Virus record (IMG/VR): IMGVR_UViG_3300007513_000013
Location: 1 to 64,000 of that record
Reading direction: 5' to 3' (one strand)
Source: a virus
DNA: 64,000 nucleotides
This document shows positions 986 to 8,169 of this stretch, piece after piece; the stretch's first letter is position 1, and each line of letters starts with the position of its first letter. Under the pieces are notes generated by a model. That model had not been told where the DNA came from. It saw nothing but the letters and a program-made list of their open reading frames with translations, and did not search any database. Made by a program: the position numbers and the translations under genes.

Positions 986-1014
986 TTGATCTCCTCCCTA
1001 AAGTCTGTTATTAT
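986..1014 (+). promoter_or_regulatory. sigma70-type promoter
   Basis: TTGATC-17-TATTAT with TG extension. Confidence 0.5.
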
Positions 1015-1221: not shown

Positions 1222-1431
1222 GCCAGGGTAGCTCAGTGGAAGAGCGCTGCCCAGTAGGATACCTGATGTCTGCGTGACTATTATAACACGGAATTAATTA
1301 ATCCGGTAGTACGGCGGCGATGCGGCTGCTCACGACTAATTGAGACAAAAGGTTGAAACGCTTGCAAGGGTTTGAGCGAGTGGATCTACGTTACGAGGTG
1401 GAGGTCGGTGGTTCGAATCCAACCCCTGGTA
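1222..1431 (+). tRNA. tRNA-Val(TAC) interrupted in the anticodon loop (exons 1222-1252 and 1391-1431)
   Basis: Acceptor GCCAGGG/CCCTGGT plus A73, D arm GCTC-AGTGGAA-GAGC, anticodon stem CTGCC/GGTGG, T arm GGTGG-TTCGAAT-CCAAC; joining C1252 to T1391 gives the loop CT-TAC-GA. Confidence 0.75.
1253..1390 (+). ncRNA. 138-nt structured intervening sequence (putative tRNA intron of unknown class)
   Basis: Several hairpins (CGTG/CACG, CGGA/TCCG, GGCGGC/GCTGCT, CGCTT/GAGCG); ends pair (GTAGG/TCTAC); terminal G. Confidence 0.6.
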
Positions 1432-3132: not shown

Positions 3133-5553
3133 ATGCACAGCAACGCTAACGAAGCAAAAGAAAAGACATTAGAATATTTTAACGGGGACGAACTGGCTGC
3201 AAACGTCTTTCTCACAAAGTACGCACTAAAAGATAAAAAAGGCAGCATATTAGAAGAAACTCCAGATGAAATGCACAAGCGCATGGCAAAAGAATTTGCT
3301 AGGATTGAAAAGAAATATGAAAAAGAGGCTCTTTCTTACGAAGAAATTTACGGCCTATTAAAAGACTTCAAGCAAATAGTTCCACAAGGGTCTCCAATGA
3401 TGGGTATTGGAAATGACTTTGTTAGTGTTTCTTTATCTAACTGTGTGGTGGTTGAATCCCCAAACGACAGCATGTCTTCCATTATAGACGCAGGCAAAGA
3501 TCTAGCAAATCTTTTTAAGCGAAGGTGCGGCGTGGGCTTGGACATATCAGAGTTAAGACCAGAAAACACTCCGGTCAACAATTCAGCAGGAACAACAACT
3601 GGAGCTTGGTCCTTTGCTGATTTTTATTCTTACGTTTGTCGCATGGTGGGTCAAAACGGTAGGCGCGGCGCCCTTATGATCACGATGGACGTGAGACATC
3701 CGGACATTGAACAGTTTATAACAATGAAACACAACCTGACTAAAGTTACAGGAGCAAACGTATCAGTAAAAATAACTGATGACTTTATGAGGGCGGTCGA
3801 AGGCGATGAAGATTTTGACTTATGTTTTCCAATAGGCGCCTCAGAGCCAACAAAGATAAAAACAGTGAAGGCTAAAGAATTGTGGAATTTAATCGTTGAT
3901 TCCGCTACAAAAACGGCTGAACCCGGCATCTTAATGTGGGATAACATAACTAAATATTTACCGGCAGAATCATACGCAGAGGACGGGTTTAAAACTGTCT
4001 GTACCAACCCTTGCTCCGAAATTCCTTTGTCCGCTTATGATAGTTGCAGGCTCATTTCTATTAATTTAAAACACTTTGTAGAGAACAAGTTTACAAAAAA
4101 TGCTTACTTCAATCTTGAGCAATTTAAGAACGTTGTGAGATCTGGAATGAGATTGTCAGACGACTTGGTGGAGCTTGAGTTAGAAAAACTTGAAAAGATC
4201 ATTGAAGTGGCTGACACGCCAGATGAAAAGGCTTTGTGGGAGAAGCTCTATATTGCCTGCAAAAAAGGACGTCGCACGGGCCTGGGTACACATGGGCTAG
4301 CAGATGCAATTGCATGTCTTAATTTAGCTTACGATTCTAAAAAAGCCCTAAAAGTTATTGATAGTATATACGGCGCCCTGAAAAACACCGCATACAGAGA
4401 AAGCTGTGCACTTGCGCGAGAACGCGGCGCCTTTGAAATATTTGATTGGGAAAAGGAAAAGAATAACCTTTTCATAAAAAGCTTGGCCCCCGCTTTGCAG
4501 GAGTTGATGGAAAAACACGGAAGAAGGAACATTTCAATATTAACAAACGCTCCAACCGGATCTGTTTCGATAATGTCTCAGACAAGTTCTGGTTTAGAGC
4601 CAGTGTTCCGCAATTCATACATTAGGCGCAGAAAGCTGAGTCACAATGAAGAAGGCGTTGAAGCTGATTTTGTAGATGAGCTAGGGGACAGGTGGTTAGA
4701 ATATGAAGTTTATCATCATAATATAAAAGACTGGATGGAACTCAACAAGGGCGCTACTCCTGATTTTTTTGTTACGAGCGATCAAATCAGCTGGAAAAAG
4801 CGAGTTGAAATTCAGGCCGTTATACAAAAACACATTGATCACGCCATAAGCTCAACAATCAATTTGCCAAAAGATACACCAACGGAAACGGTCGCGGACC
4901 TTTACATGAAAGGGTGGAAACTTGGTCTTAAAGGGATTACAGTTTATGTCGACGGCTCGCGCTCTGGTGTTTTGCTAACGAAAGAAGACATGTCGAAAGA
5001 AGCATTTCCTCAGAATGGGGCCCCAAAAAGACCTGAGAGGATATCGTGTGATATTCACCACACCACTATAAAGGGAGAGAGATGGACAATATTGGTTGGA
5101 CTTTATGACGATAAACCATACGAGGTTTTGGGTGGGTTGTCGAATTACATAGAGATTCCCAAAAAATATGTAAGTGGTAAAATGATCAAACACCACTTTA
5201 AAACAAAGAACAATCGATATGACCTGAAGTTTGGCGAGAATGGAAACGAGATTATAATAAAAGACATTGTGGCGGTTTTCGATAACCCAAATAATTCTGC
5301 TTTTACACGAATGATTTCGCTGAGTTTGCGTCACGGAGCCCCACCTAGATTATTGGTGGAGCAACTTCTAAAGGATAGAGATCACGACATGTTTAGTTTC
5401 GCTCGTTGCATTGCTAGAATTCTTAAGAATTATATTTGTGACGGCGAAGAAGCACATTCTGACAAGGGTTGTTCAGAATGCGGAGAAGAGGGTTTAGTAT
5501 ATCAGGATGGTTGTGTTACATGCACCGGCTGCGGATATGCAAAATGTGGTTAA
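3133..5553 (+). CDS. nrdJ: class II (B12-dependent) ribonucleotide reductase
   Basis: SNCVV, TNPCSEI, TNAPTGSVS motifs; C-terminal TSCPD-like region and CxxC Zn ribbon; no nrdB partner. Confidence 0.9.
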   Translation: MHSNANEAKEKTLEYFNGDELAANVFLTKYALKDKKGSILEETPDEMHKRMAKEFARIEKKYEKEALSYEEIYGLLKDFKQIVPQGSPMMGIGNDFVSVSLSNCVVVESPNDSMSSIIDAGKDLANLFKRRCGVGLDISELRPENTPVNNSAGTTTGAWSFADFYSYVCRMVGQNGRRGALMITMDVRHPDIEQFITMKHNLTKVTGANVSVKITDDFMRAVEGDEDFDLCFPIGASEPTKIKTVKAKELWNLIVDSATKTAEPGILMWDNITKYLPAESYAEDGFKTVCTNPCSEIPLSAYDSCRLISINLKHFVENKFTKNAYFNLEQFKNVVRSGMRLSDDLVELELEKLEKIIEVADTPDEKALWEKLYIACKKGRRTGLGTHGLADAIACLNLAYDSKKALKVIDSIYGALKNTAYRESCALARERGAFEIFDWEKEKNNLFIKSLAPALQELMEKHGRRNISILTNAPTGSVSIMSQTSSGLEPVFRNSYIRRRKLSHNEEGVEADFVDELGDRWLEYEVYHHNIKDWMELNKGATPDFFVTSDQISWKKRVEIQAVIQKHIDHAISSTINLPKDTPTETVADLYMKGWKLGLKGITVYVDGSRSGVLLTKEDMSKEAFPQNGAPKRPERISCDIHHTTIKGERWTILVGLYDDKPYEVLGGLSNYIEIPKKYVSGKMIKHHFKTKNNRYDLKFGENGNEIIIKDIVAVFDNPNNSAFTRMISLSLRHGAPPRLLVEQLLKDRDHDMFSFARCIARILKNYICDGEEAHSDKGCSECGEEGLVYQDGCVTCTGCGYAKCG

Positions 5554-7084: not shown

Positions 7085-7291
7085 ATGTACAAAGTACACG
7101 ATGGGTGTTTCTTTAAGATAGAGGAAATAGTTGCAGTTTGGTCCGAAAAATACAGCGATCCGAAACTGGATCAAGAATGTTATTTGGTAAGAGTGTTTTT
7201 TAAAAACAATTCTACAATTTTAACGATTGCAAACTTTCCTTCAAAGGAAAAGGCGGATGATTTGATTCGCAAAATTAGTAAAACAAGATAA
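7085..7291 (+). CDS. hypothetical protein
   Basis: GGAGG RBS, 68 aa. Confidence 0.6.
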   Translation: MYKVHDGCFFKIEEIVAVWSEKYSDPKLDQECYLVRVFFKNNSTILTIANFPSKEKADDLIRKISKTR

Positions 7292-7311
7292 AAAACAACA
7301 GGAGAAATTAG

Positions 7312-8169
7312 ATGAGTTATATACTAAGGAAGGGCGATGAAGGCCAAGAGGTGAAAAGGCTACAAAATTGTCTCTCCGTCTCGCCAGATGGAAAATTTGG
7401 ACCAAAAACAGAAAAAGCAGTTAAAGAATATCAGACCCAAAACAAATTAACAGTTGATGGTGTCGTAGGACCCCAGACACTAAAGAGTTTGGGAATTGAT
7501 GTGCTGCACGGTATCGACGTTAGCGCTTGGAATGGGAGAAATATTGACTGGAAAGAGGTTAGTAAAACAAACGTTAAGTTTTGTTGGATTAAAGTCACAG
7601 AAGGCCAAACGCATGTTAATGGTGGACATGCTGCTAAATTTGAAGGAGCTAGAGATGCTGGCTTGATTGTTGGTGGATATCATTTTGGACGACCAGATTA
7701 TAATAAATATGATAACCCCTACACAGATGCGGAAAAAGAAGCCCATCACTTTTTAAAGCACCTTAAAAAGGTCGGCGCACACTCTGGTGACCTATTGCCG
7801 GTGTTGGACGTTGAGGCTGGAATGAAAACCGACGATCAGTACAACGTGGATTGGGCTTTAAAGTGGCTTGACGTAGTAGAAGAGGAGTTGGGTGTTAAAT
7901 CGGTAATATATACCGCAAAGTGGGCCTGGAGCCTTTATTTATACAAAGCAAATAAAGACGACCTTAAAAGACTGACAACGGAATATCCAGTTTGGTATGC
8001 GCGCTATAAACGCAAGAAACATCTCGTAGGACCAGAGGATAAGCTTAAGGGCTGGAAAGAGTGGGATGTGTGGCAATATACTGGTCATGGCACGTGCCCG
8101 GGCCTTAAAGGCCGATGCGATTTAAATTGGATGGCTGGAAATCAGTTAAAAAACTTGACAATTCCATAA
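7312..8169 (+). CDS. endolysin: N-terminal PG-binding domain plus GH25 muramidase
   Basis: LRKGDEGQEVKRLQ..DGKFGPKT..DGVVGPQT; GIDVSAWNG, KVTEG, LDVE, WQYTGHG..DLN. Confidence 0.9.
   Translation: MSYILRKGDEGQEVKRLQNCLSVSPDGKFGPKTEKAVKEYQTQNKLTVDGVVGPQTLKSLGIDVLHGIDVSAWNGRNIDWKEVSKTNVKFCWIKVTEGQTHVNGGHAAKFEGARDAGLIVGGYHFGRPDYNKYDNPYTDAEKEAHHFLKHLKKVGAHSGDLLPVLDVEAGMKTDDQYNVDWALKWLDVVEEELGVKSVIYTAKWAWSLYLYKANKDDLKRLTTEYPVWYARYKRKKHLVGPEDKLKGWKEWDVWQYTGHGTCPGLKGRCDLNWMAGNQLKNLTIP

Follow-up and report, generated by a model that had tools for sequence, protein, structure and literature searches.

Bacteria and their viruses are thought to remove introns from tRNA genes only by group I self-splicing, and self-splicing as such is known only for group I and group II introns. 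Group I introns of the IC3 type reside in the anticodon loops of bacterial tRNAs (Leu-UAA, fMet, Arg, and Ile, with 21 settings in Williams 2020, doi 10.1101/2020.01.27.920355), and the smallest natural examples known to us are about 180-205 nt long. In archaea and eukaryotes, tRNA introns extend the anticodon arm as a helix and are spliced by proteins (EndA plus RtcB or Trl1) that act on a bulge-helix-bulge (BHB) motif. In phages, the only precedent that we found in the literature for tRNA introns outside these systems is the set of "enigmatic" introns of the Lak megaphages (Devoto et al. 2019, PMC6784885, Table S6), which are highly conserved, ORF-less inserts of about 80-115 nt without an Rfam hit, whose mechanism is unknown. 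Small self-cleaving ribozymes of 50-150 nt (hammerhead, twister, twister-sister, pistol, hatchet, and HDV-like) are also common in phages. Here, we examine a valine tRNA gene of an uncultured marine phage that is split in its anticodon loop by a conserved 138-base RNA with a predicted fold of its own, which fits no known intron or ribozyme family.

A split tRNA-Val(UAC) gene in a marine phage

The window analysed is the first 64,000 nucleotides of a 118-kb IMG/VR record (IMGVR_UViG_3300007513_000013) that is estimated to be 65% complete. The phage encodes a GH25 muramidase with a peptidoglycan-binding domain and an SLT transglycosylase as lysis genes, which points to a bacterial host, together with a DnaB-type helicase and a ribonucleotide reductase. 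Bases 1-1750 form a tRNA cluster with Arg(TCT) at 43-115, Leu(TAA) at 1586-1670, and Met(CAT) at 1675-1748. A perfect TTGACA-17-TATAAT promoter (1-29) lies directly before tRNA-Arg(TCT) and TTGACA-17-TAAGAT (1543-1571) lies before tRNA-Leu, such that these tRNAs appear to have their own strong promoters within a gene-dense region. A 29-codon hydrophobic ORF with a strong AAGGAG ribosome-binding site starts 18 nt after the end of the split tRNA, which therefore sits, judged from sequence, inside an mRNA between two small ORFs (1019-1216 and 1449-1538).

The original prediction described bases 1222-1431 as a tRNA-Val(TAC) interrupted by a 138-nt structured insertion of no recognised intron class, and this observation was confirmed. 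Default ARAGORN and the Rfam tRNA model both miss the gene, whereas ARAGORN with introns allowed finds a tRNA at 1222-1432. Deletion of 1253-1390 yields a 72-nt sequence that ARAGORN calls tRNA-Val(TAC), with loop CUUACGA and A73, and the spliced homologues (the four full-length lineage representatives plus one duplicate, see below) are called likewise, although one lineage (L070) has no A at position 73. The automatic alternative of ARAGORN, Ser-TGA with a 118-nt intron, requires an anticodon stem with a constant C.A mismatch that pairs in only 18 of 25 cells across the family, against 24 of 25 for the Val reading. The features of the locus, all on the + strand, are as follows.

986-1014 (+): promoter-like site (TTGATC-17-TATTAT with TG) found by consensus scan upstream of a 65-aa ORF and the split tRNA; its function is only inferred.
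1222-1252 (+): 5′ exon, comprising the acceptor 5′ strand, D arm, anticodon-stem 5′ strand (1247-51), and C32.
1253-1390 (+): insert or putative intron of 138 nt (118-140 nt in homologues), beginning with A and ending with an invariant G.
1254-1258 (+): GUAGG, which can pair with 1385-89 (closing helix A) or with the would-be ligated junction C|UUAC.
1261-1276 (+): 5′ strands of helices B (1261-64), C (1268-71), and D (1273-76) of the central rod.
1277-1285 (+): conserved A/U-rich junction ACUAYUAUA, invariant apart from one change in L071.
1286-1307 (+): hairpin E (1286-87/1306-07 and 1289-92/1302-05) with a variable 9-nt loop.
1313-1330 (+): hairpin G, a peripheral and dispensable element that is absent in L071.
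1331-1353 (+): 3′ strands of helices D (1331-34), C (1343-46), and B (1350-53), with the variable linker 1335-42.
1348-1390 (+): 3′ core, comprising junction UGAAA, hairpin H (1359-65/1376-82, with the invariant 10-nt loop AAGGGUUUGA), the 3′ strand of helix A, and the terminal G.
1391-1431 (+): 3′ exon, comprising U33-A38 (UUACGA), the anticodon-stem 3′ strand (1397-1401), variable loop, T arm, acceptor 3′ strand, and A73; no CCA is encoded.

The record contains a single copy of the insert and only four tRNAs. GUA accounts for 24% of its valine codons, and the other phage tRNAs read AGA and UUA, which account for 40% and 30% of their codon families, a pattern that fits a working decoder tRNA. 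The CAT tRNA at 1675-1748 may be an AUA-reading Ile2 type, since AUA makes up 34% of Ile codons and relatives of this phage (related loci L003, L004, L005, and L026-L028) carry tRNA-Ile(TAT) in the same cluster where this phage has none.

Conservation and predicted fold of the insert

The same phage was assembled independently by ENA, JGI, and Logan with the insert 100% identical. When contigs of four marine DNA runs were aligned to the region, other contigs matched only about 1219-1437 and carried variants such as 1292 A>G together with 1302 T>C, whereas no joint skipping 1253-1390 was among the joints listed for these contigs. Three further lineages were then retrieved: loci L066, L067, L068, and L069 (90% identical), loci L070 and L072 (duplicates, 83% identical, 140-nt insert), and locus L071 (83% identical, 118-nt insert lacking one hairpin). 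In each, the insert lies between tRNA positions 32 and 33 and its removal gives tRNA-Val(TAC). The genomic neighbourhoods differ, and the helicases of the window phage and L066 are only 65% identical. An MvaI/BcnI-type restriction endonuclease gene sits between the tRNA module and the helicase in the L066-type phage (L066:2854-3555, L067:1411-2112), while the L071-type phage carries an N6/N4 DNA methylase, an Fe-S cluster assembly (IscA-like) gene, and a ClpP protease near its split tRNA (L071:3044-3922, 4764-5084, and 7152-7751).

The exons evolve as expected for a tRNA. Acceptor pair 4:69 is A-U, C-G, or G-C; the T stem GGUGG/CCAAC becomes GACAG/CUGUC in L070; and the anticodon-stem 5′ strand CUGCC becomes CCACC or CCAUC against a 3′ strand GGUGG that is unchanged except in L071 (GGAGG), whereas the loop nucleotides C...UUACGA never change. 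Some weak points persist in this otherwise conserved tRNA: the second T-stem pair (positions 50:64, window 1408/1422) is G.A in the window, G.G in L066, and a proper A-U in L070, pair 1:72 is G.U, G-C, or G.A, and position 37 (window 1395) is G in all lineages, whereas valine tRNAs normally have A37.

A hand-built model and RNAalifold on the five distinct sequences agree on a fold in which closing helix A (1254-58/1385-89) is followed by a rod of helices B (1261-64/1350-53), C (1268-71/1343-46), and D (1273-76/1331-34) that ends in hairpins E and G, with hairpin H at the side. Across the tRNA-plus-insert alignment of the family, 96% of cells are paired and 6 pairs changed on both sides, compared with 35-46% paired when the partners were slid by 1-3 columns; with only four lineages, this is suggestive rather than proof. 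A covariance model of the family scores 130-176 bits in the four lineages. By contrast, the single-sequence folding energy is not unusual (z -0.8 for the insert and -1.7 for the whole), so that the case rests on conservation.

Individual stems of the original prediction fared differently. CGGA/TCCG (1289-92/1302-05, in hairpin E) was confirmed by the change of A1292-U1302 to G-C, also seen as paired variants in other contigs of marine DNA runs X1, X5, and X6, and GGCGGC/GCTGCT (1313-18/1325-30, hairpin G) by the change of C1318-G1325 to U-A and of G1316.U to A-U, although a 20-nt deletion removes this hairpin in L071. GTAGG/TCTAC (1254-58/1385-89, helix A) is compatible with the data, as C1389U gives G.U. 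CGCTT/GAGCG (1359-63/1374-78) is in the wrong register, since G1378A in L070 breaks it, whereas the register 1359-65/1376-82 absorbs both observed changes (U1381C and G1378A). CGTG (1273-76) more probably pairs with CACG at 1331-34 than with the proposed 1287-90, which overlaps the covarying stem, although no variation decides between them. TAGT/ACTA (1307-10/1335-38) stays pairable through wobble changes but is largely lost in L071. In addition, U1269-A1345 of helix C becomes C-G in L070, and C1263U in helix B gives U.G.

The constraint is unevenly distributed between lineages, with 95-100% identity in the 3′ core (1348-1390), 82-95% in the 5′ core (1253-1291), and 68-90% in the exons. Because the exons flank the insert within 210 nt, recombination of the whole module cannot explain this difference; either the core is under very strong purifying selection or the insert moves on its own. 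Such whole-module recombination is suggested by L068 (1-2726), which combines the L066-type tRNA and insert, an 83-aa ORF, and a fatty-acid-hydroxylase module with a helicase 99% identical to that of the window. A further locus, L058 (1100-2441), switches from window-type to L066-type sequence inside the 3′ end of the insert, reflecting either recombination at the shared insert or chimeric assembly.

Exact-pattern scans of IMG/VR with exon and intron words found nothing real, although two early patterns lay in parts later found to be variable, and a scan for an intron-less allele with the ligated-junction pattern returned two chance hits in coding DNA. In GTDB genomes, an 18-mer of the invariant core gave 27 hits, all confined to about 18-23 matching bases, and the 18 loci scanned with Rfam showed no known RNA family at the hit. 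Among GenBank phages, there was no DNA match and the nearest helicase is 41% identical. The 52 related phage loci found through the helicase carry Arg, Leu, Ile, and Met tRNAs but no Val gene and no insert, and the use of phosphomannomutase neighbours as bait gave 10 loci without a new member.

Putative routes of excision

The interpretation offered by the original prediction, a compact and possibly new tRNA intron, is partly supported. The insert is a conserved, structured element of no recognised intron class whose exon pieces rejoin into a credible tRNA-Val, but the argument from an internal guide sequence is not supported. GTAGG is indeed complementary to C|TTAC, and AAGGGU in the invariant loop of hairpin H is complementary to six bases across the junction; however, junction-spanning complementarity of that length occurs in 58-76% of shuffled inserts. 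The claim of a wholly undescribed system also needs tempering, since phage tRNA introns of unknown mechanism are in print (PMC6784885).

We consider it most likely that bases 1253-1390 are a selectively maintained intron of a phage tRNA-Val(UAC) gene, belonging to a small family carried by several lineages of uncultured marine phages. In this view, the intron would be transcribed with the tRNA, fold into its own domain on top of the anticodon stem, and be cut at C1252|A1253 and G1390|U1391, after which rejoining of the exons would give a tRNA that reads GUA and, like the other phage tRNAs, serves frequent A-ending codons. The most likely route is RNA-catalysed, in which the intron either performs both steps itself or cleaves itself while a host ligase of the RtcB type seals the exons. 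The existence and conservation of the element, its fold as far as four lineages can test it, the integrity of the exons, and the absence of known intron, ribozyme, or enzyme signatures are shown by the analysis, whereas excision and catalysis by the RNA are inferred. We are accordingly fairly confident that this is a real and functional intron-like element of a family absent from Rfam and from the literature searched, regard its excision to give a working tRNA-Val as more likely than not, and assign RNA catalysis only a tentative probability of roughly 0.3-0.4.

An RNA-based route is favoured by several lines of evidence. The near-invariance of the core, including junctions and a 10-nt loop, is typical of a catalytic or tightly folded RNA and unlike passive protein-spliced introns, and the 3′-terminal G is invariant. 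No RtcB, Rnl1, Rnl2, EndA, Tpt1, 2H ligase, or PNK-type kinase was found in the 118-kb phage record, and no RNA-processing gene lies next to the tRNA in four different neighbourhoods; bacteria, moreover, have no known tRNA splicing endonuclease. However, no spliced product has been seen, the element resembles no known ribozyme or self-splicing intron, and the introns for which self-splicing is known are larger. Only four lineages at 83-94% identity are available, so that invariance of the core is weak evidence for catalysis, and an enzyme gene could lie in the missing third of the genome. G37 is also unusual for a valine tRNA.

If excision is real, a conserved, ORF-less intron of 118-140 nt without a group I core would need either a new small splicing ribozyme or an undescribed protein pathway for tRNA splicing in bacteria, either of which would be a notable addition to RNA biology and would offer a route into the unsolved "enigmatic" phage tRNA introns. 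The possibility that the insert is the first member of a new class of compact (about 120-140 nt) autocatalytic introns, which would excise themselves from a bacterial-type pre-tRNA without a group I or II core, alone or with a host ligase sealing the exons, remains doubtful on present evidence.

Among the alternatives, the strongest, although still unlikely, is that a real intron is removed entirely by proteins: an unidentified host or phage endonuclease would recognise the junction of helix A and the anticodon stem and cut one nucleotide outside helix A on each strand, and an RNA ligase (host RtcB, or an Rnl in the unsequenced third of the phage) would join the exons. The two presumed cut sites face each other symmetrically at the base of helix A, the Lak introns are likewise hard to explain by self-splicing, and the phage record is incomplete. 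Against this, no candidate enzyme was found in the record or beside the tRNA in the four contexts, no such pathway is known in bacteria, the geometry is not a BHB, and protein-spliced introns are usually poorly conserved outside the splice-site motif, whereas here the internal core is nearly invariant.

Somewhat less likely still, the 210-nt RNA may not be spliced and may work as a whole, with the tRNA body serving as a stable scaffold, or as a handle for tRNA-binding proteins, that presents a structured domain, for example as a decoy or regulator in the phage-host conflict. The higher conservation of the insert relative to the tRNA body, the persistent G.A or G.G mismatch of the T stem in most lineages, and the weak 1:72 pair would agree with this view. 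However, removal of the insert recreates a perfect 7-nt anticodon loop with U33 and anticodon UAC in every lineage, the loop nucleotides on both sides are invariant although the stems vary, and the anticodon fits the A-ending codon logic of the tRNA set.

A drastically reduced group I intron that still uses guanosine-initiated splicing is very unlikely, despite the invariant terminal G, the location in a bacterial-type anticodon loop, and the report of C at -1 for a class of bona fide tRNA group I introns (Leu.3Cg; Williams 2020), for the structural reasons given below. Other candidates considered by hand and dropped were hammerhead, hairpin-ribozyme loop B, box C/D, an IS200/IS605-type mini-element (TTAC target), a T-arm/RNase P-RNase Z top-half mimic (the cut sites are off by one nucleotide), RNase III, and tmRNA. 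A dead insertion or decaying pseudo-tRNA, for which the lack of an intron-less relative or expression data and the unremarkable folding energy speak, is contradicted by conservation at the same site in four lineages with helicases 65% identical, by compensatory changes in both exons and insert, and by the nearly invariant core.

Comparison with described tRNA introns and ribozymes

No Rfam 15 family matches the region at E<=10 or the homologous loci at E<=5. With respect to small self-cleaving ribozymes, the insert is similar in size, is associated with phages, and has conserved junctions and loops, but it matches none of their covariance models, and a single nested domain would have to act at two sites.

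Like archaeal and eukaryal protein-spliced tRNA introns, the insert extends the anticodon arm as a helix, and non-canonical 32/33 sites are known in archaea. However, manual threading of the junction sequences found no arrangement of two 3-nt bulges separated by a 4-bp helix in either the tRNA-like or the alternative fold, the 5′ site lying in a 2-nt linker and the 3′ site at the start of a 7-nt linker. In addition, the host appears bacterial from the lysis genes, no splicing endonuclease (PF01974) was found in the phage record, and internal conservation is far higher than in BHB introns.

The insert shares with IC3-type group I introns its location in the anticodon loop of a bacterial-type tRNA, the lack of an ORF, the terminal guanosine (G1390), and a core more conserved than the periphery. 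However, -1 is C in all sequences, which alone is not disqualifying (Williams 2020), and at most 1-2 bp of P1 can form next to the 5′ splice site, without the U.G pair. The consensus fold is fully nested, with no P3/P7 pseudoknot, P4-P6 domain, or J8/7; RF00028 gives no hit at E<=10 in a 461-nt search or at E<=5 on the homologues; and the insert is about half the minimal size.

Compared with the "enigmatic" Lak introns, the present insert is likewise an ORF-less, highly conserved element in the anticodon loop of a phage tRNA gene without an Rfam hit. The Lak inserts consist of a 5′ hairpin, an A/U-rich linker, and a tRNA-like top half with a canonical T arm (GGTTCGAATCC-type). In the present insert, a 3-4 bp mini-hairpin (UAGG-AWA-CCUG) and an A/U-rich stretch exist, but they compete with helices A and B and no covariation decides between them. 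There is no T-arm motif, acceptor-like module, or tRNA-model hit inside the insert, which is instead a nested rod with a side hairpin, sits at 32/33 rather than after the anticodon, and comes from marine rather than gut phages.
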